This document shows, in pieces, positions 18,167 through 42,111 of a stretch of DNA of 64,000 nt. How positions within the stretch are numbered: position 1 is the stretch's first letter; the number at the start of each line of letters is the position of its first letter. This DNA comes from a bacterium (GTDB taxonomy: Bacteria > Krumholzibacteriota > Krumholzibacteriia > LZORAL124-64-63), in NCBI GenBank assembly GCA_003353795.1, contig PIVY01000002.1:12552-76551 (forward strand), in the 5' to 3' direction. Under the pieces are notes generated by a model, which did no database searches, had not been told where the DNA came from, and saw only the letters and a list, made by a program, of their open reading frames with translations. Both the position numbers and the translations under genes were made by a program.

Positions 18167-18241
18167 CCCGCGGTCCTTGTCCCCATGGCCGAAAAGCGGG
18201 ATAATCATGGGTGCCACCTCCGCTCTGTCCGGGAGAGACCC

Positions 18242-21446: not shown

Positions 21447-21589
21447 GTCGGACCTCCTGGTCGGTATCATTGAACGGCGAATCATCGGGTCCGTCAACCG
21501 GGCCCATCCCGCAGAGTTCCGTTTCGGCGGGAACTTCCGCGCCTTCCGCGCTATTATCCCTGGCGACCCCTGCCCGAAAGGACCCGATC

Positions 21590-24290: not shown

Positions 24291-24488
24291 GACGGACCTC
24301 CTCCCAGAGACATTCGGGCAATGAACACAGCATATCATGATTGGCGGCCCGCTTCAACGGTGTCCGTTGGTGGCTCACTTTCGATTCATGGGCGCGCGTG
24401 TTATCTTCCTGCGGCCCGTAGGGCGATTCTGTGGGCCCGAACTCGAACCCAAACTCGTTCGACCAGAACGAAAAAGGACCAATGACCC

Positions 24489-25970
24489 ATGGCCGACATC
24501 ACCAAGCGCTCCGAGGACTACAGCCGCTGGTACCAGGACGTCATCCGCGAGGCCGAACTGGCCGACAACTCGCCGGTACGCGGCTGCATGGTCATCCGCC
24601 CCAACGGCTACGCCATCTGGGAGAACATCCAGGCCACCCTGGACAAGCGCTTCAAGGAGCTCGGCCACGTCAACGCCTACTTCCCGCTCCTGATCCCCAA
24701 GAGCTTCCTGGCCAAGGAAGCCGAGCACGTGGATGGGTTCGCCAAGGAGTGCGCCATCGTCACGCACCACCGGCTCAAGCAGGTCACGCGCGACGGCAAG
24801 GTCGACCTCATCCCCGATCCCGATTCGAAGCTGGAGGAGGAGTACATCATCCGCCCCACCAGCGAGACGGTGATCTGGGACATGTACCGCAAGTGGATCC
24901 AGAGCTACCGCGACCTGCCCATCCTGATCAACCAGTGGGCCAACGTCATGCGCTGGGAAATGCGTACGCGCATGTTCCTGCGCACCACCGAGTTCCTCTG
25001 GCAGGAGGGCCACACCGCCCACGCCACCGAGAAGGAAGGTCGCGACGAGACCCTGCAGATGCTCGAGACTTATCGCTGGTTCGCGGAGGACATCCTGGCC
25101 ATGCCCGTGATCACCGGCACCAAGACCGCCAACGAGCGGTTCGCCGGGGCGGTGGAGACGTTCTCCATCGAGGCCATGATGCAGGACAACAAGGCGCTGC
25201 AGGCGGCCACCAGTCACGACCTCGGTCAGAATTTCGCCAAGGCCTTCGACGTGAAGTACCAGCCCGCCGAGGGCAAGGTCGACTACGTGTGGGCCACGAG
25301 CTGGGGCATGTCCACGCGTATCGTGGGCTCCTTGATCATGGTCCACAGCGACGACGACGGCCTCGTGCTGCCCCCGAAGATCGCCGGCACCAAGGCCGTG
25401 ATCGTGCCCATCTGGAAGAGCGACGAGGAGAAGGCCGCGGTGTGCGAGGCGGCGCAGAAGCTGGCGGCCGAACTGCGCCCCGTGATCGGCCCTGTGCACA
25501 TCGACGACCGCGACAACCTGCGCCCCGGCTGGAAATACAGTGAGTGGGAGCGCAAGGGCGTGCCGCTGCGCCTGGAGCTGGGTCCTCGCGACCTGGCCGG
25601 CGAGTCGGTCATGCTCAAGGCGCGGCACGACCGGGCCAAGAACATCGTGCCCTTCGCCGATGTCGTTGCGGGCGTGCAGGCCGAACTGGACCGCATCCAG
25701 CAGGACCTCTACGACCGCGCCAAGCAGCGCATGGTCGAGAACACGCACGTGATCGACAGCTGGGACCAGTTCACCGACCTGTTCGAGAACAAGGACGGCG
25801 GCTTCGCCATGGCTCACTGGTGCGGCGACGGCACTTGCGAACAGACCGTGCAGGACAAGACCAAGGCCACCATTCGCAACATCCCCTTCGAGCGGGACGA
25901 GACCAAGGGCGAGTGCGTGCACTGCGGCAACGAGTCCATCGGGCGGGTGGTGTTCGCGCAGGGGTACTAG
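24489..25970 (+). CDS. proS: Proline--tRNA ligase (archaeal/eukaryote-like short form)
   Basis: MADITKRSEDYSRWYQDVIREAELADNSPVRGCMVIRPNGYAIWE.. The class II motifs are present (FRPTSETV-like IIRPTSETVIW; RTTEFLWQEGHTAH). The C-terminal zinc-type CGDGTCE...CVHCG is also there. Confidence 0.95.
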   Translation: MADITKRSEDYSRWYQDVIREAELADNSPVRGCMVIRPNGYAIWENIQATLDKRFKELGHVNAYFPLLIPKSFLAKEAEHVDGFAKECAIVTHHRLKQVTRDGKVDLIPDPDSKLEEEYIIRPTSETVIWDMYRKWIQSYRDLPILINQWANVMRWEMRTRMFLRTTEFLWQEGHTAHATEKEGRDETLQMLETYRWFAEDILAMPVITGTKTANERFAGAVETFSIEAMMQDNKALQAATSHDLGQNFAKAFDVKYQPAEGKVDYVWATSWGMSTRIVGSLIMVHSDDDGLVLPPKIAGTKAVIVPIWKSDEEKAAVCEAAQKLAAELRPVIGPVHIDDRDNLRPGWKYSEWERKGVPLRLELGPRDLAGESVMLKARHDRAKNIVPFADVVAGVQAELDRIQQDLYDRAKQRMVENTHVIDSWDQFTDLFENKDGGFAMAHWCGDGTCEQTVQDKTKATIRNIPFERDETKGECVHCGNESIGRVVFAQGY

Positions 25971-25994
25971 GCGCGCTGATCGACGAATGAATCA

Positions 25995-26030
25995 GGGCCC
26001 CGGCCATCGCGGCTGGGGCCCTTCGTTCTT
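25995..26030 (+). terminator. Intrinsic terminator after proS
   Basis: GGGCCCCGGCC (25995-26005), loop ATCGC, GGCTGGGGCCC (26011-26021), then TTCGTTCTT. Confidence 0.7.
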
Positions 26031-26042
26031 GTCGGTGCGGTG

Positions 26043-27302
26043 TCAGGCCAGCGTTTCCCGCCCGACCGGCAACGTCATGCACCGGCACCCGCCCCCGCCG
26101 CGCGCCAGCTCCGACCCGTCGATGGTGATCACGCAACGCTCGTGCGCCTCGATGTCGGCCTTGCCGGCGATCACGTCGGGCGCTGCGAGGACGGTGAAGC
26201 CCCGGCGGTCGAGCTCCTCGATGGTGTGCACGTTGCGCGCGTAGCCGATGACCTTGCCGGGAGCCAGGGCGAAGAAGTTGGTGCCCGAGTGCCACTGCTC
26301 GCGCTCCATGAGCCAGCGGTCGTCGCCACCGCCGCAGGGAATCGCCTCGAGGTCGAAGTCCAGGTCGCGCAGGCCGTCCATGAGGCAGTCGATCTCGCGG
26401 ATGCGCTTGACCTCGCCGCCTTCCACGTGGATGTGCACGGTGGGGAAATGGTTGTGCTCGGTCACCAGCGGCGCGTAGACCACGCAGGCGTTGCGGTCGA
26501 CGAAGGTGAAGACCATGTCGAGGTGGATGAACGACTCCGGTTTCTCGGGCATGACCTGCACCAGGAGGTGCCGCGCCACACCGTGGGCCTTGAGCCGCTC
26601 GATGAGGAAATCGACGCCCTCGGTGGACGTGCGCTGGCCCACGCCGACCATGAGCACGTCCTCGCGGGCCACCAGCACGTCGCCGCCCTCGATGGTCACG
26701 CCGGGCCCGGGGGCGCCCAGGCGCACGGGGTTGACGGTCTCGGTCTCGAAGCCCGGATGGTGATCGAAGATGGCCTCCATGATGAGCGCCTCGCGCTCGC
26801 GGACGGCGCTGGCCATGCGGCCTACCAGGATGCGATTGCCCACCGCGGCGGCGGCGTCGCGCATGAAGAAGAAGTTGTGCAAGGGCGGCAGGGAGAAGCG
26901 GTCCTCGCTGAGGAAGCGCGTGAGATTGTCGCGTACGATGGGCACGCCTTCGATGAGGGCGCGGGTCAGGTCGACCGGCTCGAGTTCGCGCAGGGCGTCA
27001 CGGATCAGGCCGGCCTTTTCCTGGACGCAGATCCGGCTCACGACCGACTCGCGGACCCGGTCGTTGGCCAGGATGTCGGTGAGCAGGTCGCGCACCTGGA
27101 ACGTCGTGGTCCAGCGCTCGAGCACGCCATGGAGCTGGTCGTACTGGGTCTCGGCCACATCCAGATTGAGGATGTCGCTGTAGAGGGCGCGTTCGGCCGT
27201 GGCCGGGGTCATGGCGGCCACTTCGGGGCCGGGGCGGTGCAGGATCACGCCGGTGAGGCGTCCTACCTCGCTCTGGACGTCGACGGTGAACTTCTGGGTC
27301 AT
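26043..27302 (-). CDS. Arginine deiminase family (guanidino-group modifying enzyme)
   Basis: Trimmed to ATG 27302 (MTQKFTVDVQSEVGRLTGVILHRPG..). FFMRD is present, and the C-terminal catalytic-Cys context GGGGCRCMTLPV. No arcB/arcC neighbours. Confidence 0.8.
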   Translation of the reverse strand: MTQKFTVDVQSEVGRLTGVILHRPGPEVAAMTPATAERALYSDILNLDVAETQYDQLHGVLERWTTTFQVRDLLTDILANDRVRESVVSRICVQEKAGLIRDALRELEPVDLTRALIEGVPIVRDNLTRFLSEDRFSLPPLHNFFFMRDAAAAVGNRILVGRMASAVREREALIMEAIFDHHPGFETETVNPVRLGAPGPGVTIEGGDVLVAREDVLMVGVGQRTSTEGVDFLIERLKAHGVARHLLVQVMPEKPESFIHLDMVFTFVDRNACVVYAPLVTEHNHFPTVHIHVEGGEVKRIREIDCLMDGLRDLDFDLEAIPCGGGDDRWLMEREQWHSGTNFFALAPGKVIGYARNVHTIEELDRRGFTVLAAPDVIAGKADIEAHERCVITIDGSELARGGGGCRCMTLPVGRETLA

Positions 27303-27580
27303 GGTCGGCTCGATCTCCGTTGAAGGTGTCGAATGATGCCCCGGGCGCCGGCGCCGATCCTGACGAACACGCCCTGGCAGGGAATCGCGCGCCACGCTAC
27401 CACAAGACTGCCGTTCTCGGCGAGTATCGTCGGCGCCGACGGCTGCGGCCGTACTTCCAAGATAAAGCTTGCGTACCGGTATTCGAGGAGATAATCGTGC
27501 GGACAAATAGATGGTGGTCGGTCCGTTCGGACCACGATCGGCCGCGCTTCCGGAACGGGCCACGACGAAAGGATCATAGC

Positions 27581-28426
27581 GTGCGTATCAAGCACCTCGC
27601 CCGCCTAGTCGCTCTCTGTTTCTGTTTCCCCCTTCTGGCGTCAGTCGCAACGGGCCAATCGGTCACCGCTTCCGATTTCCGCAGCGCCGGTCGCTTCCTC
27701 GAGTTCAGCTACGGCACGGCTACGCCGAAGTTCAAGGGCATGGATGGTTCGTTCGCCAGCCTGGGTATCCTGGAATTCAAATCGGGCTACAGTCTCCGCG
27801 ACAGCGTCACCGCGAACGTGATCGGCATGGACGACTTCTATTCCTTCGGCAGCTACATGGACGAAGACCTCCGGGCCTTCGGTACGACCGGGGCCGACGA
27901 GGACGTGGCTCGGCTCGGTCGGTTCGGAATCGGCAACCGGATGGGCTACGGCTACGACTGGCAAGGCACCGCTCTCGAGCTGTACAACCAGAACTCCATC
28001 AACTGGACCACCCTGCACGCGGACCACTATCCGGACGCCTCGGACGACGCCCAGGCCATCTTCGACCGCTACGGTACCCAGCTCCGGTTCGGACAGCTCA
28101 TGGAAGCCGGCGCGAAGTTCCACGTGTCGCAGACTGTCGCATTCACCGGTGGTATGGAGGGTGCGGTGATCTTCCCGCGGTACGTGTTCTGGCCCTGGCT
28201 GGGAAGCGTGGCGATCTACTCGATCGCCGAAGGTGCTGTCGAGCTGATCGCCGATCAGATCATGGAGTCCAACCCGACCATTGGTCCCGTCGCCTACTTC
28301 TTGCTCAAGAACGGACTGTCGCTCGCCTACTACTCGCTCCTGCGCGGCGACATGGCCTGGCCCTTCAACTACGAGCAGCCGCTCACCGTGGAGTCATTCA
28401 AGCTGGGGTTGAACCTCACGTTCTAG
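27581..28426 (+). CDS. Hypothetical outer-membrane protein
   Basis: GTG 27581 follows AAAGGA. The signal peptide is ..ALCFCFPLLASVATG. The C-terminus FKLGLNLTF has the terminal-Phe OMP signature. Confidence 0.5.
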   Translation: MRIKHLARLVALCFCFPLLASVATGQSVTASDFRSAGRFLEFSYGTATPKFKGMDGSFASLGILEFKSGYSLRDSVTANVIGMDDFYSFGSYMDEDLRAFGTTGADEDVARLGRFGIGNRMGYGYDWQGTALELYNQNSINWTTLHADHYPDASDDAQAIFDRYGTQLRFGQLMEAGAKFHVSQTVAFTGGMEGAVIFPRYVFWPWLGSVAIYSIAEGAVELIADQIMESNPTIGPVAYFLLKNGLSLAYYSLLRGDMAWPFNYEQPLTVESFKLGLNLTF

Positions 28427-28446
28427 CGGGATCGTCGACGATCGTT

Positions 28447-28471
28447 CGGGCCCGGCGCCATGCCGGGCCCG
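28447..28471. terminator. Perfect 10-bp GC hairpin between convergent genes
   Basis: CGGGCCCGGC / GCCAT / GCCGGGCCCG. No clear U-tract. Confidence 0.4.
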
Positions 28472-28478
28472 AGCAGAG

Positions 28479-29330
28479 TCACGGTGCGGGGACCGCCAGT
28501 TCGTGGAGGCGCCGCTGCGCCGATTCCAGGTCCGGACATCCCGCGACTCCCAGTGCCCCACTGTCGGTTTTCCGCATGACCACCACTCCCTGATAAGGGA
28601 TCTCGCGCCACGCGACCACGTGGCCGCCGTCTTCCTGCACGTGCCACTGGCGGGAGATGGTGGCGAAGGGGTCGCCGCCGGCCCGCATGGCGAACACCTG
28701 GTACGCCTGTCCCGAGTCCGGATCCTCGTAGTCGGCGTGGAGGCAGTTGCGCAGGTCGGCCAGGCCGAGGTAGTCGCGACCGGTGTAGGCGACCGAGCCC
28801 GGAACACGATCGGCGTTGGGAATCAGGGCGAGTTCGGCGGGCGGGGAGTCCGCTCCTTCCAGGCCCGCGGCCGCGGCGGCGAGGATCTCGCGCAGCAGCG
28901 TTTCGTCGACATCGCCGCCGCCGGCCTCGACCTTCACGTAGAAGCGGTCCTTGTACATGAGGCCCTGGTAAGGCGGCTGCAGGATCGCACCGGCGCCGGG
29001 TTCGTCGAGGATCTCCCGATCGGCGGGACTCTCGCGCTCGAAGATGCCGAAGGCGCTCATGGGGTGGCCCATGTCGTAAACGCTGAGGGTGGCGTACTGG
29101 TCGCCGCGTTCGAGGTCGCGCACCGCCAGTTCCCGGAAGTTGTAGGTGAGATAAAGCTCGGCCGCGCCGTTGATGTACTCCCAGAGGTTGTCGGGACCGT
29201 AGCGATATTCCTGGTCGGGGGCGTCCCAGCCCTCGGGGATGGGCACGATGTTCTCCTCGCCGGTCGTCTGGGCGACGACCGACGAGACGGTGCAGGCGGC
29301 GATCAGGATGGCCGCGAAGATGGCGCGCAT
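28479..29330 (-). CDS. Secreted hypothetical protein, last gene of the DUF362/polyferredoxin/AKR operon
   Basis: The signal peptide is MRAIFAAILIAACTVSSVVAQ. Contains NLWEYINGAAELYLTYNF. It starts 12 nt after the AKR stop. No family assigned with confidence. Confidence 0.6.
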   Translation of the reverse strand: MRAIFAAILIAACTVSSVVAQTTGEENIVPIPEGWDAPDQEYRYGPDNLWEYINGAAELYLTYNFRELAVRDLERGDQYATLSVYDMGHPMSAFGIFERESPADREILDEPGAGAILQPPYQGLMYKDRFYVKVEAGGGDVDETLLREILAAAAAGLEGADSPPAELALIPNADRVPGSVAYTGRDYLGLADLRNCLHADYEDPDSGQAYQVFAMRAGGDPFATISRQWHVQEDGGHVVAWREIPYQGVVVMRKTDSGALGVAGCPDLESAQRRLHELAVPAP

Positions 29331-29342
29331 GTCGATTCCTTC

Positions 29343-30725
29343 CTAGGCCATGGTGAGCAGGCCGTGAGCCTCGAACAGACGGGCGGGCACCGCCACGCCG
29401 CGGGAGCAGGCTCCCACGCAGGGGGCGTCGCAGTCGAGGCAGACACCGGCGTTGCGAGCGCCGAGCTTGGCGTACTTCTGCATGGCGTGCTTCTGCCGCC
29501 CCTGCTTCTGGTAGTAGTAGGCGTAGCGCATGATGGTGCTCACGGGCAACTGCTCCGGGCAGGCGCCGAAACACTCGGTGCAACCGAAGCGGCAGTCGCG
29601 TGCAGCGTAGGCCGCGGCGTACTCCTCGAGCAGGCGGGCGCCGCTGTCGGAGATCTCGGTGCCGGACAGTGGCAGGAACTTGTCGAGCATGTCGAAGTTG
29701 GGCATGGACGGCACGATGGTGTGAGCGTCGGGATTGCGCAGCACCCACTGGAGGCTGGCGTAGTCCAGCTCGTCCTGGGTCTTGATGCCGTGCTTCTCCA
29801 TGAACGGCTTGGCCGCCGCCACGCCCTTCTCGAATTCCGGCTTCTGCCGCTCCATGTAGGTGCGGATCCGCTCGATGGCCTCCTCGCGGGTGGCGCCGGT
29901 GCCCATGACGTAGTCGATCCAGCCCTGGACCTGCTCGCTGGGGTTGTCGGGATCGAGGACCGGCATCTCAAGCAGCCCCGTCACCGACTTCATGATGGTG
30001 GTGCCGATGTCCTTGTCCTTGCAGACCTTCAGGATGTTCTCGCCCTCTTCCTGGTTCGTGAAGCCGTAGCTCAGCAGCATGACGTCGAAGCGACCGTCCT
30101 CGGCGGCCAGGCCGAGCACCTTCTCCATGCTGTCGGGCTCGTCGCCGCGGGGGCCGTGGCTGGAGATGCCGGCGTGCTTGAGCCTGCCGTCGGCCTTGAG
30201 CTTGGCCACCGCGATATGGAAGGGCTCGTGGGTGATCAGCTTCACGTCGGCGATACCGTGCATGTAGAGCGCGTCGGCGTAGGGGGTCTGCAGGCGCTCG
30301 AGGCTCTTCATGTAGCGGTCGATGATCTCCTGCTCGTCGGGGTACTCGTCGATGCCCATCTTGGTGACGATGAAGATCTTCTCGCGGTCCATGTACTGCA
30401 TGGCCTGGCCGATCTTGGTCTCGGAATCGCCATTTCCGTAGCTCTCGGCGGTGTCGAAGCAGTTGATGCCGTGGTCGTAGGCGTAGCGGATCACGTTGGG
30501 GTCGGCGATGGAACCGCAGCCCATACCCAGGTCGGAAACCTGGAACTCGGTGCGACCGAGGCGGCGGTGGCGTGTGACCTTGGCGACGGCGGGCTCCGCG
30601 GCGGCGACGGGGTCGGACTGCGCTTCGGGCTTGCTGCCGCAGCCCGCGGCGGCCAGGCCGAGAGCGGCGGTGCCTCCCAGCTTGAAGAACGCGCGGCGGT
30701 CGAGCTTGCTCTGTTCGGTCTTCAT
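29343..30725 (-). CDS. Tat-exported (possibly lipidated) aldo/keto reductase with a C-terminal Fe-S cluster-binding extension
   Basis: Trimmed to ATG 30725 (GAGAGGG upstream). The Tat motif is DRRAFFKLGGTAALGLAAAGC. The AKR core is YDHGINCFDTAESYGNG..IFIVTKMG. C-terminal Cys clusters are CRFGCTECFGACP and CLDCDAPCVGAC. Confidence 0.8.
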   Translation of the reverse strand: MKTEQSKLDRRAFFKLGGTAALGLAAAGCGSKPEAQSDPVAAAEPAVAKVTRHRRLGRTEFQVSDLGMGCGSIADPNVIRYAYDHGINCFDTAESYGNGDSETKIGQAMQYMDREKIFIVTKMGIDEYPDEQEIIDRYMKSLERLQTPYADALYMHGIADVKLITHEPFHIAVAKLKADGRLKHAGISSHGPRGDEPDSMEKVLGLAAEDGRFDVMLLSYGFTNQEEGENILKVCKDKDIGTTIMKSVTGLLEMPVLDPDNPSEQVQGWIDYVMGTGATREEAIERIRTYMERQKPEFEKGVAAAKPFMEKHGIKTQDELDYASLQWVLRNPDAHTIVPSMPNFDMLDKFLPLSGTEISDSGARLLEEYAAAYAARDCRFGCTECFGACPEQLPVSTIMRYAYYYQKQGRQKHAMQKYAKLGARNAGVCLDCDAPCVGACSRGVAVPARLFEAHGLLTMA

Positions 30726-30742
30726 GATCTCGCCCTCTCTTT

Positions 30743-32389
30743 TCAATAACCTAGATCTTGGCCATAGGGATCGTTGCCGCCCGGCAGGACGGGCTGGTTG
30801 TCGGGATGCCGATCCTCGCCGGCACTGGTGACGCGGATCGCGGCCAGGTCCTGGAACGGACACTTGGTCTCGCAGATGCCGCAGCCGGTGCACAGGTCGG
30901 GATCGACCACGGGAAATTTCAGGGTGCGCGAGGAACCGTCACGCAGTTCGACGTCGCGCAGTTCGAAGGTGATGGCCTTGGTGGGGATGGGACAGTGCTC
31001 CTCGCAGACGATGCACTCGCGGTCGTAGGCGAAGGGCAGGCAGCGGGTGGTGTCGATCACCGCCAGGCCGATGTTGGCCTTCTTCTTCACGTCCAGAGTC
31101 AGCGGCTCGATGGCCTGCGTGGGGCAGACCTGTCCGCAGGCGTGACACTCGAACTCGCAATAGCCGATGGCCGGCACCAGCACCGGCGACCAGAGGCCCT
31201 CGAGGCCCGCCTGCTCCCAGGCCGGTTGCAGCGCCGCCGTGGGGCAGACCTGCATGCAGAGGCCGCACTGCACGCAGCGTTGCAGGAATTCGCGCTCGGC
31301 ACGCGAGCCGGGCGGGCGGATGAGCGCCGGATTGAAGGTCTTGCCGTGGGCCTGCGGCGTCATGCGCATGAGCGCGAGGCCGCCGGCGCCGGCGACCAGC
31401 GAGGTGATCAGGCGGCGTTTGCCCACATCGAGCGTGCCGCTGGAGGTCTTCGCCGTGGGCAGATGCCAGGTGAAGTCGAGGCTGCCGTTCTTGCACGCGT
31501 CCACGCAGTTCCAGCAGCCGAAGCACTCGGTGCCGAGCCACTGGTCGGGCTTCTCGGGCTGGGCAGCCGCGGGGCAGCTGAGGGTGCACTTGCCACAGCT
31601 GTTGCAGCTCTCGCTGTCGCTGGTCAGGCGCAGGAGTGGTCGGATGGAGAAGGCGCCAAGCAGACCGCCCAACGGGCAGAGATAGCGGCACCAGAAACGG
31701 TTGCGCACCAGGTTCAGGGCCAGCGCGGTCATGAAGATCAGGAAGATGAAGCCGGCGCCGGAGAAGACGCGCAGTTCGGTGGCCGTGACCTGGTTGCGCC
31801 ACCAGGTGTAGACCGGTTCGGTGAGGTCGCGCAGGTGCAGCGCGCCCAGGTGCGGATCGCCCATGTAGATCGCGTTGGCGACGGCGCCCACGGCCACGTC
31901 CAGGGCGGGGACCACGGTGAGGGAGAGGCTGCGGTAGAGGAGGGAGAAGGGGTCGAGGACCCCGATCCAGTTGGCGCCGCAGACCGCGAGCAGGAGAAGC
32001 GCGGCGAGGATGTAGTACTTGCCGCGTTGCCAGCGGCTGTAGCCCTCGACGCGCGGCGTGATGCGGCGGAACTGGTCGCGAAGGGAACCCACCATGTTGT
32101 GGAGCGTGCCGAGGGGGCAGAACCAGCCGCAGAAGACCCGGCCGAACACGAGGGTGACGGCGATAGTCGCCAGGCCCAGCAGCGACGCGCCGGCCAGGGT
32201 GTGGGTCGACAGCCAGGTGGCAATCATCACCAGCGGGTCGAGATCGAAGAACACGCCGACCGGTGCGTCCGGCGCCAGGCCGGTGGTGGGGCGGTTGGCG
32301 GCGAGCAGCACGACGAACAGCAGAAGCGCGAGGCCTTGGACCGTGCGGCGCGTCCAGATGAGGCGGCGGGCTCGCGCGTGGGCGCTCAC
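30743..32389 (-). CDS. Integral-membrane polyferredoxin (NapH/CcoG/NosR-like membrane domain plus multiple 4Fe-4S motifs)
   Basis: GTG 32389 overlaps the DUF362 stop (GTGA); the track N-terminal 99 codons are discarded. Membrane CxxxCP motifs are FCGWFCPLG and FWCRYLCPLG. Ferredoxin motifs are CNSCGKCTLSCP, CFGCWNCVDAC, CVQCGLCMQVCP, CHACGQVCP, CIVCEEHCP and CTGCGICETKCP. Confidence 0.85.
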   Translation of the reverse strand: MSAHARARRLIWTRRTVQGLALLLFVVLLAANRPTTGLAPDAPVGVFFDLDPLVMIATWLSTHTLAGASLLGLATIAVTLVFGRVFCGWFCPLGTLHNMVGSLRDQFRRITPRVEGYSRWQRGKYYILAALLLLAVCGANWIGVLDPFSLLYRSLSLTVVPALDVAVGAVANAIYMGDPHLGALHLRDLTEPVYTWWRNQVTATELRVFSGAGFIFLIFMTALALNLVRNRFWCRYLCPLGGLLGAFSIRPLLRLTSDSESCNSCGKCTLSCPAAAQPEKPDQWLGTECFGCWNCVDACKNGSLDFTWHLPTAKTSSGTLDVGKRRLITSLVAGAGGLALMRMTPQAHGKTFNPALIRPPGSRAEREFLQRCVQCGLCMQVCPTAALQPAWEQAGLEGLWSPVLVPAIGYCEFECHACGQVCPTQAIEPLTLDVKKKANIGLAVIDTTRCLPFAYDRECIVCEEHCPIPTKAITFELRDVELRDGSSRTLKFPVVDPDLCTGCGICETKCPFQDLAAIRVTSAGEDRHPDNQPVLPGGNDPYGQDLGY

Positions 32390-33327
32390 GAGAGGACGCG
32401 ATCCACGGGTGCCAGCGAGGCGTAGTCGATGGTGCCCAGGCCGGCGGCGACCGCGGCGTTCAGGGTGCTGATCGCCGTGGGGTCGTGCCCGAGGAGCGTG
32501 GACCCGAAGGCGTCGAGGGCCACGATGTCGGTGCCGGCGGCCACGATGCCGTGCACGGTGACGTCGCCCGGGTCGCCGCCCTGGGGACCGTGGGCGTCGA
32601 GTACGCGCACCGCGTCGATCACCGTGAGGCGGGGACGCATGAAGCGGGTGATGTCCACCAGACAAGGATCCATGTGCTGGTGCCAAGCGGTGCGCTGGCC
32701 GCCGATGGTGCCCATGTAGTTCTTCATGGCCAGCGACGCGTTAGTCAGGCCGTGGTGCTTGACCACCGGCACGTTGATCACCAGGTCGGCCTCTGCGATC
32801 TCGGTGTAGACGGGCCACGTCTCGAGCCGGTCGCCGCCCAGCTCCATGTCGCGGAAGCGGCGCTCGTCGAGGTAGACCACCTGGCCTCCGCCCGCCTTGG
32901 TGGCTGCCGCGATGCCGCTGGTGCGGTAGGCCTGCTTGGCGGGATGGCAGGGGTGATCGCCCACCTTGACGGTCTTGGCGCCGGCCTCGACACAGAGGCG
33001 TACCAGGGTGCCGACCACGTCCGGGTTGGTGTTGGCGGCCAGCTCGGGGCGGCGATTCCAGCCGATGTTGGGCTTGATCCAGACCACGTCGCCCTTGCTG
33101 ACGAATCGGGTCATGCCGCCGATGGACGACATGGCGGCCTCGGTGAGGCGAGTGGCGGCCGCGGTGAGATCGGCGTCGGCGAGGGCGGCCTGGTCCCAGC
33201 GGGCGATGGCCATCTGGGCGGGGTCGTCGGCGGCTCGAGCGAGACGGATCAGCGGATCGGAAAGGGCGATGGCGCCGGTGGCCAGGGCCGCGTTCCGCAG
33301 GAACTCGCGACGGTCGCAGCGGGGCAT
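32386..33327 (-). CDS. Tat-signal DUF362 domain protein
   Basis: The twin-arginine signal is MPRCDRREFLRNAALATGAIAL. VWIKPNIGW..., VINVPVVKHHGLT and DIVALDAFG are typical DUF362 blocks. Confidence 0.8.
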   Translation of the reverse strand: MPRCDRREFLRNAALATGAIALSDPLIRLARAADDPAQMAIARWDQAALADADLTAAATRLTEAAMSSIGGMTRFVSKGDVVWIKPNIGWNRRPELAANTNPDVVGTLVRLCVEAGAKTVKVGDHPCHPAKQAYRTSGIAAATKAGGGQVVYLDERRFRDMELGGDRLETWPVYTEIAEADLVINVPVVKHHGLTNASLAMKNYMGTIGGQRTAWHQHMDPCLVDITRFMRPRLTVIDAVRVLDAHGPQGGDPGDVTVHGIVAAGTDIVALDAFGSTLLGHDPTAISTLNAAVAAGLGTIDYASLAPVDRVLS

Positions 33328-33723
33328 GATGCCTCCTCACAGGTGGTCGGGCGAGCCGGGCAGCTCGCCGACAGGTGCTGGCGAGCATACGGCGTTGATT
33401 CTAGCGCGGTTGCAGGGGATGTGTCCAGGGGGCGACAGGATCGGTCGTCGATCTACGAGGAATCCGCCAAGAATCCTAAACCTTGAACTCACGCTTGGTG
33501 AAGTTCTCGCTAATTGACCGATGATTATCGGCGTTCTATTGTGCCCTGGCTGGCGAATCTCCCGAGTATCGCAACGTGGGTCGGCAACGGCGAGATCTTA
33601 TTCAAGTTGTTTATTTGATACCAGTTATCGTTTCAGTGTCTCGACAAAGGAGGCCTCTCTGTCGCCTCTTCGATCAACTCGCCCGTTCCATTTTCCGGAT
33701 CGATCAATGAGGAGGATTCCGAC

Positions 33724-36700
33724 ATGAATCATCGCCCAACCCGACTGATCATCGTGCTGCTCACCTTGTTTGCCATCGTCCTCTCCGCGTCGTCGGCGCT
33801 GGCGGCGCTGGAGTGGGAGAAACGGGCCGCCATCGATCACGGCCTCGTGTGGCTGGCAACCAACCAGTCCATCAACGGCGACCTGGGATACTGGAGCTAC
33901 TCCAACGACGGCACCCTCGCCTGCACCGCCGCTGCGGCGCTGGCATTCATCGAGGAGGACTTTCTGCCCGGCGAGGACGTTGTCATCGACGACATCAACT
34001 ACGGCGACGTGGTGGGCTTCGCGCTCAACTACGTCTTCAATCACGCCGTCGCGGACTCGCGATTCGGCGTGGAGTACGCGGTCTACGAGCGATATGCCGA
34101 GGACTACGACAACGACGGCATCTACGACGACGGTAACGACCAGGCCATCTACTTCGATCCGGGGAATCCCAACCGGCGGGTCTACACCACCGGCATCTGC
34201 GTGCCCATGGTCTTCGCTCTGGGCGAACGTCTGGGAATCAATACCGTCATCGGTCGCGGCTCGGCGGTCGTCAGCGGCATGACCTACGCCGAGGCCATGC
34301 AGGATCTCATCGACTGGTTCTGCTTCGCCCAGGTCGAGCCGAATCGCGGCAACTACCGCGGAGGCTGGCGCTACGATGCGAACTACCCCGACTCGGACAA
34401 TTCCACCGCGCAGTGGGGATCCCTTCCGTTGCTCTACGGCGATTCGTGGGGGCTGGGAGCGCCCGACTACGTGTTCGCCGAACTGGAACTCTGGGTGAAC
34501 TACATCCAGAACGCCAACGGCGGCTCCGGGTATTCCAATCCCGGTAACTACGTCAACGTGGCCAAGACGGGCGGACTCCTGCTCGAGTTGGCGGCCATCG
34601 GCGCACCGGTGAGCGACGCACGGGTGCAGGCGGCGATCGGCTTCATCAACGGCCGCTGGAACACCGGGCCGTCTGGCACCTGGTACGGCAACCTGAATCA
34701 TCCCTATGCCATGTGGGCGGTCTTCAAGGGGCTCGAGGTCTATGACCTCATGGATACCATCACTCTGGATGATCTCGAGATCCTCTTCGGTTTCGGAATG
34801 TCCGCTGCACCTGGCGGCTTCCCCATCGGCACCGTCGACGACTTCGTCATATCCGAGAGTGGCGATTGGTACTCGCACTACTGCGACTACCTCGTGGGGA
34901 TCCAGAACGGAGATGGGGGCTGGAACGGCTATCTGCACTGGGTCGGCGCCATGGCGACCGGCTGGTACATCAACATCCTCGATGGCATCCGCGTGCCGGG
35001 AATCGGCAATCCGGCCATCAGGCTGGTCTCCGAGATTCCCGATGCTTGCGCCAATCCTGGCGACCCGGTGCTCCACACCGCCGCATTCTGGTACGGCACG
35101 CCGGGCTTCCCCGATCCCGACACGCTGCCGGCCGAGAACGTCGAGGTGCTGCTCACCCTCAATCAGCACATGACGTTCGTCGCAGCCAGCGATGGCGGCA
35201 CCTACGACGTGGGCGCCCATACGGTCACCTGGTCCATCGGTGAACTGGCCGACGGAGAGGTGGATACGGTCACCGTGGACGCGGTCGTCGCCGGCACGGC
35301 GCCTGCCGACGCCGAGCTGATCACCGAAGTCGACGTGAGTGCGACCAACGTACAGGAGGAGGACTGGGGCCACGACGAGACGGAGGTTCTCACCTGCGTG
35401 TCCACCTGCGTCTGGAACGTCGCTACCGACGTGGTCGAGCGCGGCGCCACCCACGGCGTGGCCTGGGGCGATTACGACAATGATCAGGACCCCGATCTCC
35501 TGGTCACCGGCAGCGGCTTGAACCACCTGTACGAGAACGTGGACGGCGTGCTCGTGATGGTCGAGGGCTGGTGCGAAGACGAGGAGCCGTCCTACGGAGC
35601 CGCCTGGGCCGACTACGACAACGACGGCGATCTCGATGTCTACGTCGTGAACTCCCTGGTGGCCAACGCGCTCTACAACAACGACGCCGGCGTGTTCACC
35701 CGGGTCGCCGCCGGCGATGCCGAGGACGCCGGAGACGGCTACAATGCCGCCTGGGCGGACTTCGACGGCGACGGCGATCTCGATCTCTACATCTGCAACC
35801 GAGACGGCACCAACCGGTTGCTCGAGAACGACGGCGGCATGTTCACCTCGGTGGGCGGCGTGACCGAGTACACGGGCATCACCCGCGGCTGTGCATTCGC
35901 CGACTACGACAACGACGACGATCCGGACCTCTACATCAGCGTCTACGGCGACAACATGCTCTTTCGCAACGACGGCGGCGTGTTCGTCGACGTCTCGGCC
36001 CCGCCGATGAACGACGGCGGCGAGGGCAAGGGCGTGGCCTGGGCCGACTACGACAACGACGGCGATCTGGATCTCTACCTGGTCAACACCCACGGCGCCA
36101 ACAAGCTGTTCCGGAACGACCTCGATGCCGGCTTCGTCGACGTGACCGACGCACTTCTCGGCGACGAGAACAACGGTCGCACGTGCGCCTGGGCCGACTA
36201 CGACAACGACGGCTGGATGGACCTCTTCTTCACCAACATCACCAGCGGTCGGAACATCCTCATCGAGAACGACGAGGGTGTGTTCACGGATGCCAATTGC
36301 GGTGTGCTCGAGGACACGGCGACGCTGGAATCGTGGGGCTGCGCCTTCGCCGACTACGACGGTGACGGCGACCAGGATCTGGCCATGGCGGTGCGCACGC
36401 TCAACGGTCCGAGCAAGGTGTTCCGCAACGATCTGACGTTCGGCGAGCCGGCGAACTGGCTGCAGATCGACCTGCGCGGCGTGGCCAACAATCGCTTCGG
36501 TGTGGGCGCCCGCATCGTGGTCGATACCGGCGAGCAGACCCTGATGCGCGCCGTGAATGCCAACGGCGCCTACCTGGGGCAGCAGCCGCTCACCGCCAGC
36601 TTCGGGCTGGGCGCGGCCACGCACGTGGATCTGACCGTGCACTGGCCCAACGGCGAGGTCCAGACCCTGGCGAATCTGCCGGTGAACCGCCGGCTGGAGA

Positions 36701-37026
36701 TCGTGGAAGCCGCCGGCGCGGTGGGCGTGGACGAGTTGCCGACGTCGCCGCTCCTGACGGTGACCAACTATCCGAATCCGTTCAACCCCAGCACGACCCT
36801 GGAGTTCTCGCTGCCGCGCAGCGCCGAGGTCGAGTTGAAGGTGCTGGATGCGCGCGGTCGGCTGGTCAGGACGTTGCTGGCCGGCGAGACCATGGTTGCC
36901 GGCGTGCATCGCGTGCGGTGGCAGGGCGGCAGCGACTCCGGTCGGGATGTGCCGTCGGGCGTGTACTTCTATCGGTGCGGTGCGGGCGGTGAGGTCGTGA
37001 CCGGAAGGATGGTGCTCTTGAAGTAG
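33724..37026 (+). CDS. 1100-aa secreted protein: alpha/alpha-toroid repeats, DUF11-like Ig domain, 7x FG-GAP/VCBS propeller, ASPIC/UnbV (CRTAC1-like) domain and a T9SS-type C-terminal domain
   Basis: GAGGAGG lies upstream. The signal peptide is ..LSASSALAA. Toroid repeats include GGWRYDANY, NGGSGYSN and QNGDGGWNGY. There are seven xAWADYDNDGDLDLY-type repeats. GARIVVDTGEQTLMRAVNANGAYLGQQ..HWPNGEVQ is ASPIC-like. The C-terminus is YPNPFNPSTTLEF...VLDARGRLVRTL...SGVYFYRCGAGGEVVTGRMVLLK. Confidence 0.9.
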   Translation: MNHRPTRLIIVLLTLFAIVLSASSALAALEWEKRAAIDHGLVWLATNQSINGDLGYWSYSNDGTLACTAAAALAFIEEDFLPGEDVVIDDINYGDVVGFALNYVFNHAVADSRFGVEYAVYERYAEDYDNDGIYDDGNDQAIYFDPGNPNRRVYTTGICVPMVFALGERLGINTVIGRGSAVVSGMTYAEAMQDLIDWFCFAQVEPNRGNYRGGWRYDANYPDSDNSTAQWGSLPLLYGDSWGLGAPDYVFAELELWVNYIQNANGGSGYSNPGNYVNVAKTGGLLLELAAIGAPVSDARVQAAIGFINGRWNTGPSGTWYGNLNHPYAMWAVFKGLEVYDLMDTITLDDLEILFGFGMSAAPGGFPIGTVDDFVISESGDWYSHYCDYLVGIQNGDGGWNGYLHWVGAMATGWYINILDGIRVPGIGNPAIRLVSEIPDACANPGDPVLHTAAFWYGTPGFPDPDTLPAENVEVLLTLNQHMTFVAASDGGTYDVGAHTVTWSIGELADGEVDTVTVDAVVAGTAPADAELITEVDVSATNVQEEDWGHDETEVLTCVSTCVWNVATDVVERGATHGVAWGDYDNDQDPDLLVTGSGLNHLYENVDGVLVMVEGWCEDEEPSYGAAWADYDNDGDLDVYVVNSLVANALYNNDAGVFTRVAAGDAEDAGDGYNAAWADFDGDGDLDLYICNRDGTNRLLENDGGMFTSVGGVTEYTGITRGCAFADYDNDDDPDLYISVYGDNMLFRNDGGVFVDVSAPPMNDGGEGKGVAWADYDNDGDLDLYLVNTHGANKLFRNDLDAGFVDVTDALLGDENNGRTCAWADYDNDGWMDLFFTNITSGRNILIENDEGVFTDANCGVLEDTATLESWGCAFADYDGDGDQDLAMAVRTLNGPSKVFRNDLTFGEPANWLQIDLRGVANNRFGVGARIVVDTGEQTLMRAVNANGAYLGQQPLTASFGLGAATHVDLTVHWPNGEVQTLANLPVNRRLEIVEAAGAVGVDELPTSPLLTVTNYPNPFNPSTTLEFSLPRSAEVELKVLDARGRLVRTLLAGETMVAGVHRVRWQGGSDSGRDVPSGVYFYRCGAGGEVVTGRMVLLK
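35602..36213 (+). repeat. Coding nucleotide repeats (FG-GAP blades)
   Basis: gcctgggccgactacgacaacgacggc(gatct) recurs identically at 35602, 36037 and 36187, inside the propeller region. It encodes AWADYDNDG. Confidence 0.9.
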
Positions 37027-37094: not shown

Positions 37095-39887
37095 TCATCG
37101 GGGGAGATGTCCGACCTCCAGTTCGTAGGTCAACCAGGTGAGGTTCGCCCCGGAATCTGCTGCGATGTGGCGGCGGCGGACCTCGCTGAGCGCGTCCCAC
37201 GCGCCGGTCAGCCCCGCGCCGCGGGTGCGTGCGAGGAACTCGCTCATGAACGCCGCCGCGGCGGCGTCCTCGATGGTCCAGCGGGCGGCGATCACGCCCG
37301 CAGCGCCGGCGTCCGTGAAGGCATCGGCGAGGGACGGTCCGGTCACGGTTCCGATCGCGTGGCCCGAGGCGCTCCGGCAACTGGAGAGCACCACCAGCTC
37401 GCAGCCGGAGAGGTCCCGGCCCAGGATGTCGGCAAAGGTGAGCCGGTCACCGACGGGATCGTGATCGGCCGGGTCGGCGGCGCAGGGCAGGTAGCTGCGG
37501 TAGGGCATCTCCGGGTCATGGGTGGCGTGGCCCGCGAGGTAGATCATGCGGGCCCGGGGCAGGTGCTCGAGGATGGCCTGCTTGCGGGCGGCGGCGTCCA
37601 TCAGCAGCACGGGGTCGGGCAATCGCGCGGCGGCCAGCTCGGCCTCGACCCGGACGTACGGCAGGGAGCGGAGCGATGGGCGCTCGCGCTTCAGGGACGA
37701 CGAAAGCTCCGGCACGCCGACCACGCAGCTCAGGCGGTTGTCGCTTGCCGCGGTGGGCCCGTCGTCCACGAGCCGCAGGTAGGCCGTCTGCCAGCGCGCC
37801 GCGAGGGGCTGATAGTCCGCCGGATCGCCGAGATTGCAGGCCTCGAGCGCCAGCGGATCCACTGCTGCGGTGGTGGCGATGAGCAGGCGGCCGCCCGTGT
37901 CGGCCCGCACCCAGTCCGGCATGAGAACCTCGGTGACCTCGGCGAGCTCTCGCGCCAGCTCGCGGGATACGGGCGCGTGCGGCGTGGCTACCCCCTCGGC
38001 GAGGCGTAGAGGTACCACTGCCAGCAGGGGCGCCACGGCGTTCGCCGGGATCGAGTCGCAGGCGACGCTGCCGTCGATGATCTGCCAGCGGAGCACCTGG
38101 TCGCCGAGCCGGGCATACACCAGCGCCCGGTCGTCGCCGGTTCGCGTCCAGTCGGCGAGCTCGTCGGCCTCGCTGCGGCCAAAGGCCAGCAGGCGCTCCA
38201 CCGTGCCGCCTGCGCCGGTGACGTGGTGGGTGGTCGCGTATCGTCGGAGTTGTCGCCACGCCAGTTCGACGGCGAGGCCGCCGCGCGGATCGTCGGCGAA
38301 GTGGCGGTGGAGCTGCTCACGGAATCCGTCGAGGCGGCTCAGCATGAGGTACACCTCGACCCGCTCGCCCCAGGCCGAGAGCCTGGTCAACAGGTCGGCG
38401 AGAGCCGCGTCCGCGTGCACTGCAGCGAGGCTGGCGTCGCCCTGCAGCTCGGCGATCTGCAGCGCGAGGCGGCTAGTCTCGAAGCTCGGCGGCCCCGCGT
38501 CGACGGACCTGGCCAGGTGAATCGCGGCGCTGTCCGCCCGTCCCGCCGCCACGTGGCCCGACGCGATGATGGTGTGGAGGCGGCGGCCGTGGTCGCCGAG
38601 GCCTTCCCGCCGGACGTAGGCGAGGCCCTCGTAGGCAAGGGCGATGGCGCGGCGGTGCTCCCCCCGCTCGACGAGCCAGGATGACCAGTCGGCCAGGACG
38701 GTGGCGTAGTCGTAGTTCCGCGGCAATGAGGTCGTCAACTCGGCGAGGCACGCGTAGACCGAGTCCGCCGCGGCATGCCGACCCACGTGTGTCAGGTAGC
38801 CAGCCTGGGTGCGGAGGGTGACCGCCAGGTAGCTGGCCTGCCGCGGTTCGGCATTCAGGAGCGTGACCTGCCCGAGCAGCAGTTCGGCCCGCGGCAGTCT
38901 GCGGCCGACCAGGTCCCAGCAGCCGAGGTCAGCGTGGAAGGCGAGCCTGGCCGCCAGGAAGCGGACCTCGATGTATCCGGCGTCGAGCCGGCGCGCCACG
39001 GCCACGGCCTCGTCGTAGTGCTCGGCCGCCAGGCTGAGCTCGCCGCGACCGCGATGGTAGGCGGCCAGGATGGTGTGGATCCGGCCGGCCTGGGCGGGGA
39101 GTCGGGCTGCGAGGGCTAGTTCGAGGGCCTCGTCGGCCAGCAGCATGGCGGTGTCCCGGCGGCCGGCAGCGAGACGGTCGTCGCAGAGCGTTCCGAGCAT
39201 ATGGCTGAGCTGGGGCGTGAGTCCCGCCTCGCGAGCGAGGCGGATTCCGCGGTAGAGGTGCGCCCGCTTGCGGTGGTCCTGGCCGGCGTCGGCGGACAGT
39301 TCGACCATCCGGCTCTCGATATAGGTCTCGGACCAGGGGCAGCCGGCGAGGGAATCGGATAGGGCCTGCATGGCTCGGTACTTCTCGTCGACCGGGGCGT
39401 CGGTGGTCCGGTGGACGCGCATCACCTCATTCTTGAGGCGGGTCACGCGCAGGCCTTCGCTCGTCGGGTGCTCGCGCAGGTAGCGGACCAATGTCTGTGG
39501 ACCCTGCGAGTGACCGCGGTCGGCGACGATGGCGGCCAGGCGTTCGATGGCCGGCATCGTCTGCGCCAGTGACGATTCGTAGGCTGCGAGAGAGGTGTCG
39601 TCGATCGAGTCGATGATCAGGCCGACGTGGTCGATGAGCTGATGCGCATCGAGCGCGTCGCAGACCGCGGCGAGCTCGTCGTCGGTGCCGGAGACCAGGG
39701 CGTCGGCGAGGCGGGGGTCGAGGTTGGGCGCATGGCGGATCAGGATCGCGCCGGGAGCTTCGGCACCGGTGAGGCGCATGAGGACGATCACGGCCACGAC
39801 GACCACGATCGACGCGGCGGCGATCGACCATTTCGAAAGGGAACCGTGCCGGTGGGTGAAGGCCATCATCACGGGGTCACGGTTCAC
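37095..39887 (-). CDS. Membrane-anchored TPR-like / CHAT-domain (caspase-fold) protease
   Basis: GTG 39887 overlaps the anti-sigma stop (GTGA). There is one N-terminal TM (SIAAASIVVVVAVIVLMRL) with basic residues before it. About 590 aa of helical repeats follow. The C-terminal CHAT domain carries the His/Cys dyad contexts MIYLAGHATH and LVVLSSCRSASG. Confidence 0.85.
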   Translation of the reverse strand: MNRDPVMMAFTHRHGSLSKWSIAAASIVVVVAVIVLMRLTGAEAPGAILIRHAPNLDPRLADALVSGTDDELAAVCDALDAHQLIDHVGLIIDSIDDTSLAAYESSLAQTMPAIERLAAIVADRGHSQGPQTLVRYLREHPTSEGLRVTRLKNEVMRVHRTTDAPVDEKYRAMQALSDSLAGCPWSETYIESRMVELSADAGQDHRKRAHLYRGIRLAREAGLTPQLSHMLGTLCDDRLAAGRRDTAMLLADEALELALAARLPAQAGRIHTILAAYHRGRGELSLAAEHYDEAVAVARRLDAGYIEVRFLAARLAFHADLGCWDLVGRRLPRAELLLGQVTLLNAEPRQASYLAVTLRTQAGYLTHVGRHAAADSVYACLAELTTSLPRNYDYATVLADWSSWLVERGEHRRAIALAYEGLAYVRREGLGDHGRRLHTIIASGHVAAGRADSAAIHLARSVDAGPPSFETSRLALQIAELQGDASLAAVHADAALADLLTRLSAWGERVEVYLMLSRLDGFREQLHRHFADDPRGGLAVELAWRQLRRYATTHHVTGAGGTVERLLAFGRSEADELADWTRTGDDRALVYARLGDQVLRWQIIDGSVACDSIPANAVAPLLAVVPLRLAEGVATPHAPVSRELARELAEVTEVLMPDWVRADTGGRLLIATTAAVDPLALEACNLGDPADYQPLAARWQTAYLRLVDDGPTAASDNRLSCVVGVPELSSSLKRERPSLRSLPYVRVEAELAAARLPDPVLLMDAAARKQAILEHLPRARMIYLAGHATHDPEMPYRSYLPCAADPADHDPVGDRLTFADILGRDLSGCELVVLSSCRSASGHAIGTVTGPSLADAFTDAGAAGVIAARWTIEDAAAAAFMSEFLARTRGAGLTGAWDALSEVRRRHIAADSGANLTWLTYELEVGHLPR

Positions 39888-42072: not shown

Positions 42073-42111
42073 GTGCCCGGCAATGGCGCCGGGCGAACAA
42101 GGAGCGACCCC

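Follow-up and report, generated by a model that had tools for sequence, protein, structure and literature searches.

Nickel-pincer enzymes described before 2026 were racemases of the LarA type only, and these have since been joined by NphT, a cytoplasmic aldo/keto reductase (AKR) and the first AKR shown to bind the cofactor nickel-pincer mononucleotide (NPMN) covalently (Semersky et al., Nat Chem, June 2026, PMC13524815). A dual Sec/Tat 'polytopic polyferredoxin', in which NapH and NapG are fused and which uses both the Sec pathway and twin-arginine translocation (Tat), has also been defined and tested, with its physiological role left open in the accessible part of the report (Tooke et al., eLife 2017, PMC5449189). 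Relatives of both proteins are encoded next to each other in the operon described here, which occupies positions 28479-33327, on the minus strand, of a 64-kb stretch (the window, meaning the whole of the DNA analysed) of contig PIVY01000002.1 from the bacterium LZORAL124-64-63. Its four genes encode, in order, a DUF362 protein (gene 1), a polyferredoxin (gene 2), an AKR (gene 3) and a DUF6599 protein (gene 4). NphT, the polyferredoxin and LarA are already known; what is most likely new, as judged from sequence comparison, is an exported nickel-pincer AKR that is linked to iron-sulfur (Fe-S) clusters and stands beside a LarA-like DUF362/polyferredoxin unit.

NphT was discovered through the adjacency of its gene to larB, larC and larE. 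Lys200 is its tethering residue for the cofactor and His144 its nickel ligand, Thr142 makes contact with the cofactor, and, according to the authors, the His/Lys motif is absent from the characterised NAD(P)H-dependent AKRs. The enzyme acts redox-neutrally, and Fe-S clusters, the Tat pathway and the periplasm are not mentioned in the paper (PMC13524815). For the polyferredoxin, the rule of hand-over to Tat, as given in the available text of Tooke et al., is a twin-arginine pair before a weakly hydrophobic helix and basic residues after it; the family described there includes a member from Latescibacteria (PMC5449189).

The exported aldo/keto reductase

Gene 3 (29343-30725, minus strand) follows gene 2 after a 17-nt gap and encodes 460 residues, which match Aldo_ket_red (PF00248) at 1e-27. 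The AKR tetrad is retained as D91, Y96, K122 and H156, and the Tat signal has its twin arginines at residues 10-11. The best solved relative of the protein is NphT (Protein Data Bank (PDB) entry 9YEB), at 3e-12 with the single sequence and 1e-21 with the family profile. The alignments obtained with phmmer and with the profile both place S188 and H190 of the S-x-H motif (30156-30164) on T142 and H144 of NphT, and the profile alignment places M245 and K246 (29988-29993) on I199 and K200, within an alignment of low identity that covers only residues 54-254 approximately. The canonical AKR 4XK2, when aligned to the family profile, has a phenylalanine at the position of the histidine.

Conservation was assessed in 84 homologues from 84 loci of many phyla, with identities of 27-72%. 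Where the contig covers the corresponding gene part, the homologues show no substitution at the twin arginines, in the tetrad or at S188, H190, M245 and K246, apart from a single Arg at K122 and a single Thr at S188, and the twin arginines are present in every AKR of the loci whose called N-terminus is on the contig. The possible lipobox cysteine, C29, is found in only about two thirds of the aligned homologues. The C-terminal di-cluster domain (29406-29594, minus strand) carries the motifs C378x3Cx2Cx3CP and C429x2Cx3Cx3C, and all eight cysteines are kept in 78 of the 84 homologues; they are missing from naturally short AKRs such as those of loci L011, L013 and L081, as well as where a contig end truncates the gene. 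The distant AKR of L158, which is 23% identical and is divergently placed together with a DUF6599 gene, has a Tat motif, the eight cysteines and the pairs T-x-H and M-K, and gives weak matches to Fer4_9 and Fer4_10 across its C-terminal domain. The Tat motif, the possible lipobox cysteine and the two four-cysteine motifs of gene 3, all of which appear in the initial annotation, were thus found again, and the Tat motifs of the AKR and of DUF362 are not artefacts of start choice, because the twin arginines are kept across homologues.

These features strongly indicate that gene 3 encodes a Tat-exported, Fe-S-bearing AKR of the NPMN type, whose cofactor is most likely a covalently attached nickel pincer and not NADPH. 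The initial annotation had pointed out that an exported AKR would find no NADPH in the periplasm. The export stands, and the puzzle itself disappears in the light of the NphT-type His and Lys and of the larEBC genes beside relatives, because a covalent hydride cofactor loaded in the cytoplasm would replace free NAD(P)H. Such cytoplasmic loading would also explain why the Tat pathway is used.

A short form of the Tat-AKR, of about 356 residues, stops before the Fe-S domain (L011, 6555-7484; L013, 10118-11047; L081), and cluster P0100 together with some 20 more clusters of 354-362 residues belongs to this form. The short Tat-AKRs occur in the same four-gene context, with no separate Fe-S reading frame after them and no adjacent lar genes.

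The lar genes

The genes larE, larB and larC lie directly behind the DUF6599 gene of the same four genes in loci L001, L005, L006 and L091. Those of L001 score above the NCBIfam cut-offs, and neither a LarA nor a further AKR was called beside them. The AKR-anchored sample consists of 80 loci from species-representative GTDB genomes, eight of which have lar genes. Distant gammaproteobacterial members of the AKR family have larC-larE-larB next to them. In three gammaproteobacterial metagenome-assembled genomes (MAGs; L080, L083 and L084, ~9.8-14.9 kb), larC-larE-larB are found between the Tat/Fe-S AKR and a divergently oriented gene for a 297-residue, cytoplasmic, NphT-like AKR, so that two AKRs, one cytoplasmic and one periplasmic, appear to depend on one pincer-biosynthesis cluster. 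The genes larBCE have been reported without larA in approximately 15% of genomes.

The NapH-NapG fusion polyferredoxin

Gene 2 (30743-32389, minus strand) encodes 548 residues and has a GTG start within the GTGA overlap with gene 1. Pfam gives Fer4_5 in two stretches and many Fer4 families, and NCBIfam gives NapH/MauN at 5e-27 for the N-terminal part and NapG/MauM at 2e-32 for the C-terminal part, where the NapG model spans residues 321-521. The scores are far under the equivalog cut-offs (112 bits versus 269, and 90 versus 234), and no nap genes are among the annotated reading frames of the window, so that the Nap nitrate-reductase system proper was rejected as an identification.

Hydropathy peaks at approximately residues 20-38, 65-83, 127-145 and 210-228 mark four N-terminal membrane segments. 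A motif scan places CX3CP motifs at residues 87 and 234 and six ferredoxin-type cysteine motifs at residues 262, 289, 372, 411, 450 and 500. Between the second and the third of the latter lies a KRR sequence (residues 324-326) with the twin arginines R325 and R326, which precedes a weakly hydrophobic fifth membrane segment (RLITSLVAGAGGLALMRMTPQAHGK; 31355-31417, minus strand) with Arg and Lys residues behind it. The fifth segment remains under the hydropathy threshold attained by the other four, and the internal RR or RRK is kept in all relatives that span the region. The NapG-like domain with the last four [4Fe-4S]-type motifs (372, 411, 450 and 500) occupies 30746-31276, minus strand. The two CxxxCP motifs, the six ferredoxin-type motifs and the internal Tat-like segment that had been ascribed to this 548-residue membrane protein are all present.

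With the architecture of the dual Sec/Tat family of Tooke et al. recognisable in its sequence, the gene 2 product belongs to that family. Homology and the positive-inside distribution of its charges strongly indicate a topology with two clusters in the cytoplasm and four in the periplasm, which answers, by inference, the question of the side faced by the ferredoxin domains. Since a NapH-like membrane part is joined through an internal Tat segment to a NapG-like periplasmic domain, a link to the quinone pool is plausible.

The DUF362 protein and LarA

Gene 1 (32386-33327, minus strand), with an ATG start and GGAGG 7 nt upstream, encodes a 313-residue protein that matches DUF362 (PF04015) at 1e-50. 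Its twin arginines are residues 6-7; the pair is present in nearly all DUF362 copies of the loci and at the N-terminus of 112 of 130 diverse DUF362 representatives, none of which has a ferredoxin motif. A search of the family returned more than 6,000 representatives of 50%-identity clusters at E <= 0.001. Among 131 mutually diverse sequences, K190, H192 (32752-32754) and K202 (32722-32724) are 100% conserved and H216 (32680-32682) is conserved in 97%.

The AlphaFold2 model of the protein (pLDDT 88.6) has as its only significant fold matches in the PDB, according to Foldseek, 18 chains of the LarA superfamily (E 1e-6 to 8e-5, probability 1.00). LarA matches the Pfam DUF362 model PF04015 at 5e-5, and both families belong to the same Pfam clan. 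A PDB sequence search with the DUF362 profile gave no match at E <= 10, and the C-terminal domain of LarA (PF21113) has no match in the 313-residue protein even at E <= 10. At the level of residues, BLASTP (E 0.04), hhalign and hmmsearch arrive at a common local register, EADLVINVPVVKHH...MK versus EADLLISEGFIESH...RK, which puts H192 and K202 of DUF362 on the catalytic His174 and the tethering Lys184 of LarA. The alignments are weak: the hidden Markov model of the sub-family is insignificant against LarA despite the common register, and hhalign against a profile of three LarA sequences gave a probability below 1%, with the shallow profile yielding the register of the cofactor loop. H216 is positioned 14 residues past the Lys, versus 16 in LarA, and the alignments do not place His108 of LarA.

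According to the model and the profile match, DUF362 has a LarA-like fold and detectable homology to LarA. The residue mapping is only suggestive, and DUF362 may be a second pincer enzyme with a cofactor at K202/H216. The earlier statement that DUF362 has no assigned function in such a context has to be revised: it now has a predicted LarA-like fold, conserved H/K/H residues and a polyferredoxin partner. In the literature, DUF362 was found only as an outgroup or as a DUF fused to a carbohydrate-binding module. Gene 1 also matches, under the cut-off (1e-28), the NCBIfam 'Npun_F2552 family protein', named for a gene of Nostoc punctiforme, and no paper was found under the name Npun_F2552. Cyanobacteria have been reported to make the pincer cofactor without LarA (PMC11796402), and a DUF362-like protein could be the missing pincer user there.

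Two gene pairs and the DUF6599 protein

In the 80 metagenome loci that were anchored on DUF362, the polyferredoxin gene directly follows DUF362 in 66 of the 69 loci in which this can be assessed. In the AKR-anchored sample, DUF6599 directly follows the AKR in 29 of 64 assessable loci, and DUF362 and the polyferredoxin are adjacent to the AKR in 16. The AKR/DUF6599 and DUF362/polyferredoxin pairs are colinear in the clade of the window and divergent, on opposite strands, in 12 Gemmatimonadota loci. In many lineages the AKR is found with DUF6599 only, or alone, and no redox partner recurs near the AKRs that stand alone (Aminicenantes, Entotheonella and others). An AKR is present in only four of the 80 DUF362-anchored loci, one of which is L158, where it lies divergently beside DUF362 and the polyferredoxin. 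DUF6599 is found beside DUF362-polyferredoxin without any AKR in L085, which is syntenic with the window, and loci L153, L156 and L161 have DUF6599, a Tat-DUF362 paralogue, DUF362 and the polyferredoxin, again without an AKR. The paralogue has 295-297 residues and matches PF04015 weakly and in its C-terminal half only. Clustering of all neighbours of the 80 DUF362 loci gave no third conserved partner; the third-largest cluster was rejected, as it lies antisense beside or over the polyferredoxin and looks like artefactual reading frames.

The four genes are therefore two separable pairs that have been joined repeatedly: DUF362 with the polyferredoxin, a near-obligate pairing, and AKR with DUF6599, a frequent one, with DUF6599 able to accompany either pair. 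The initial annotation treated them as one four-gene module. The operon and the co-occurrence hold, and the indivisible unit has to be given up, because the two pairs also occur apart.

Gene 4 (28479-29330, minus strand; 283 residues), which starts 12 nt after gene 3, had been described as a secreted protein of unknown family. It is a member of DUF6599 (PF20244), with an E-value of 1e-25 and 90.7 bits against a gathering cut-off of 27. Across the family a Sec signal peptide is conserved; lipoprotein status was ruled out, because the DUF6599 Cys is not conserved. The protein consists of two alpha/beta sub-domains with no conserved Cys/His cofactor motif, and its model (pLDDT 90.6) resembles the extracellular sensor of PknH, TiME, RseB/MucB, LpqN, DcrB and PsbP/Mog1. 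These folds are those of ligand- or partner-binding proteins and not of redox proteins, and the predicted fold of DUF6599 is a non-catalytic one of the PknH-sensor or PsbP-Mog1 kind. No paper on DUF6599 was found in the literature.

A possible mechanism and its alternatives

In the model towards which we lean, with a confidence only a little above even, the operon would encode two cofactor-bearing periplasmic oxidoreductases and a membrane wire to the quinone pool. The Sec pathway would insert the four helices of gene 2, with the two CX3CP motifs and two [4Fe-4S] clusters staying on the cytoplasmic side, and the internal twin-arginine segment would hand the four-cluster NapG-like domain to Tat for transfer into the periplasm. 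As the fixed partner of the polyferredoxin, DUF362 would most likely be the catalytic subunit that the polyferredoxin serves, and it might itself bind a pincer cofactor at K202/H216. The AKR would receive, while still in the cytoplasm, two Fe-S clusters as well as a pincer that is tethered to K246 and has its nickel on H190, and the folded holoenzyme would be exported by Tat, with no need for free NAD(P)H. It would then exchange a hydride, in either direction, with a periplasmic sugar-like alcohol or carbonyl by means of the D/Y/K/H tetrad, and the AKR's di-cluster domain, together with the NapG-like domain, would relay the reducing equivalents that pass between the quinone pool and the pincer sites. 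DUF6599 might be a non-catalytic binding or docking subunit that serves either enzyme in the periplasm.

The flow of electrons would most likely be from the substrate to the quinone. Collecting electrons from substrate oxidation would be thermodynamically easier than feeding oxidoreductases. The initial annotation saw in the operon a quinone-linked conduit that feeds periplasmic oxidoreductases; an operon of exported and membrane redox proteins is indeed present and the quinone link is plausible, with feeding being one possible direction only.

Several observations weigh against this wiring of the operon. The accessible part of the literature contains no case in which a nickel pincer exchanges electrons directly with Fe-S clusters, and the chemistry of NphT is redox-neutral (PMC13524815). 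No lar genes were found in the 64-kb window, tblastn searches with LarE, LarB and LarC included. The lar genes track the AKR and not DUF362, as only one of the 80 DUF362-anchored loci has them and that locus also has an AKR. The association of the gammaproteobacterial AKR with larCEB is not independent proof, because the second, cytoplasmic NphT-like AKR flanks these genes as well. The match of DUF362 residues to LarA depends on local alignments that are weak (E 0.04; hhalign probability <1%), and the deeper profile of 131 DUF362 sequences aligned to the C-terminal domain of LarA instead. In many loci that contain the AKR, some with DUF6599 and some without, no polyferredoxin is nearby, and most DUF362-polyferredoxin pairs are without AKR. 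In L011 and L013 the four-gene context is unchanged although the AKR lacks the Fe-S domain, and therefore a link between the AKR and the polyferredoxin need not pass through the AKR clusters.

The redox-neutral chemistry of NphT, the persistence of the Fe-S-less variants in this operon context and the separation of the pairs in most AKR-anchored and most DUF362-anchored loci would also be expected if the operon contained two modules that are independent or only metabolically linked. The AKR would then be an NphT-like hydride shuttle by which periplasmic sugars are disproportionated, transhydrogenated or epimerised, the role of its Fe-S domain would be structural, regulatory or reactivating, and DUF362 alone would exchange electrons with the polyferredoxin. 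We consider such independence somewhat unlikely, since retention of the eight cysteines in 78 of 84 AKRs, down to 27% identity, is unusual for a merely structural appendage, and since at least three arrangements or lineages have brought the pairs together, here with a spacing of 12-17 nt. It is also conceivable that the AKR uses a nicotinamide cofactor in the conventional way and is exported with NADP(H) held tightly, as is the glucose-fructose oxidoreductase of Zymomonas, and that the coincidence of the His and Lys is irrelevant. This explanation would fit the canonical tetrad and the finding of no lar genes in the window; it is nevertheless highly improbable, because NphT comes first among the relatives of solved structure, the whole family keeps the diagnostic His and Lys, larEBC are attached to the operon in four close relatives, and the NphT authors find the His/Lys pair absent from the characterised NAD(P)H AKRs (PMC13524815).

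The wire might also run in the reductive direction, with the NapH-like part oxidising quinol and DUF362, the AKR or both reducing a periplasmic carbonyl or other oxidant for the purpose of detoxification or respiration. NapGH is a quinol dehydrogenase feeding periplasmic reductases, according to the available text of Tooke et al. (PMC5449189), and AKRs are classically reductases (PMC13524815). This direction is unlikely, as no conserved terminal-reductase-type partner or regulator is found near DUF362 in the 80 loci. Reduction of an aldehyde or ketone by (mena)quinol is, moreover, expected from the midpoint potentials to be thermodynamically uphill.

The full form of the wired model, in which the Tat-AKR and the Tat-DUF362 family both carry the pincer and are connected via Fe-S clusters and the NapGH-type fusion to the quinone pool, is rather doubtful. 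If it were true, a nickel-pincer site would perform the conversion of hydride to electrons that is normally the task of a flavin, DUF362 would be a further pincer-binding family beside LarA and the AKRs, and part of the excess of genomes that are positive for larBCE and negative for larA would be explained.

Operon boundaries and surrounding genes

The reading frames confirm four genes on the minus strand at the coordinates first proposed, and the coordinates of the key residues were confirmed by translation. The tight junctions described for the operon are as reported: a GTGA overlap of genes 1 and 2 (32386-32389) and gaps of 17 nt and 12 nt. The 4-nt overlap of DUF362 and polyferredoxin recurs among the called genes of L001 and L085, and the conservation of the gene arrangement across other genomes shows that it is beyond chance. 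The local DNA is 66% G+C and contains longer alternative and large antisense reading frames, which were rejected as artefacts; homologues start at the starts chosen in the initial annotation.

A consensus scan, which is weak evidence, gives a sigma-70-like promoter candidate upstream of the operon (TGGACA-18-TAGAAT; 33398-33427, minus strand). Just past the stop codon of gene 4, a GC-rich hairpin without a T-tract (28446-28472, minus strand; minimum free energy -32.2 kcal/mol, z -3.7, with 0 of 200 shuffles folding equally well) likely marks the operon end.

The flanks of the operon at 24489-27563 and 33724-37026 are syntenic with the Krumholzibacteria loci L085 and L086, with a gene for an FG-GAP/ASPIC protein upstream and genes for arginine deiminase and prolyl-tRNA synthetase downstream. 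At the syntenic site, L085 is without AKR and L086 without AKR and DUF6599, which suggests that the AKR-DUF6599 cassette was gained or lost recently at exactly this site. In L085, cytochrome bd oxidase genes follow soon after the module, behind the arginine deiminase gene. Convergent on the operon end is a 368-residue reading frame (27320-28426, plus strand) that has no Pfam match and ends in ...GLNLTF, a possible signature of an outer-membrane beta-barrel; in L086 the corresponding position is taken by an OMP_b-brl gene.

Large secreted proteins of the FG-GAP/FlgD-Ig/Por_Secre_tail type and a 930-residue CHAT-domain protein are encoded around the operon (18185-19909, 22422-24338, 33724-37026 and 37095-39887), a content of secreted-protein genes typical of MAGs of the Fibrobacteres-Chlorobi-Bacteroidetes group or of those like Krumholzibacteriota. 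The window also contains an FGE-sulfatase-type gene (21470-22408), a tryptophan-biosynthesis cluster (42073-48650; anthranilate synthase I, TrpD, TrpC, TrpF, TrpB and TrpA) and an EPSP (5-enolpyruvylshikimate-3-phosphate) synthase gene (49696-51024). A run of genes for 268, 219 and 392 residues at 45-48 kb is larEBC-like by size but is trpC/trpF/trpB.

Comparison with known systems

In the AKR family the pincer cofactor would reach the periplasm, with Tat exporting the covalently loaded holoenzyme; it would also be coupled to Fe-S clusters and stand beside a quinone-linked membrane module, in Krumholzibacteriota, Gemmatimonadota, Acidobacteriota, KSB1, Myxococcota and other phyla that dominate the degradation of polymers in sediment and soil. 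The annotation of such exported Fe-S AKRs as NAD(P)H aldo/keto reductases is likely a systematic mis-annotation. DUF362, a large orphan family, gains a testable hypothesis, namely that it is a LarA-like, possibly pincer-binding enzyme and provides the dual Sec/Tat polyferredoxin with its catalytic partner.

NphT (9YEB, from Alicyclobacillus cellulosilyticus) shares with gene 3 the TIM barrel of the AKRs, the D/Y/K/H tetrad and, at aligned positions, the (S/T)-x-His for nickel and the (I/M)-Lys for tethering, and both have relatives that are accompanied by larB, larC and larE. NphT is a cytoplasmic monomer of 291 residues without a signal peptide or an Fe-S domain, whereas gene 3 has a Tat signal, perhaps with a lipobox, an insertion of about 80 residues and the C-terminal domain with two four-cysteine motifs, and has DUF6599, DUF362 and the polyferredoxin as its neighbours. 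The lactate racemase superfamily of LarA (5HUQ and others), which uses the nickel-pincer nucleotide, and DUF362 have in common the clan and the fold; in weak alignments, the invariant His and Lys of DUF362 also fall on the His and Lys of LarA, with a conserved His after the Lys. DUF362, unlike LarA, is shorter by about 100 residues, gives no match to the C-terminal domain and leaves the second catalytic His without a located counterpart; it is also Tat-exported, paired with the polyferredoxin and without a lar-gene association of its own.

The polyferredoxin of the delta-proteobacterium MLMS-1 (Q1NSB0), as far as the available text describes it, is like gene 2 in its NapH-like part of four helices with CX3CP motifs, its cytoplasmic clusters, the twin arginines before a weakly hydrophobic fifth helix with basic residues and the four-cluster NapG-like domain. 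In comparison with NapG and NapH of E. coli and Wolinella, gene 2 has no nearby nap genes and scores far under the equivalog cut-offs. Its fixed partner is DUF362, which is not mentioned in the accessible part of Tooke et al. (PMC5449189). Systems of the MsrPQ/YedYZ type, and others that pair a periplasmic catalytic subunit with an electron module in the membrane, resemble the operon in combining a Tat-exported, cofactor-loaded enzyme with a quinone-linked membrane redox protein. Their proteins are unrelated to those described here and use the molybdenum cofactor and haem b, whereas the operon would use Fe-S clusters and a putative nickel pincer.

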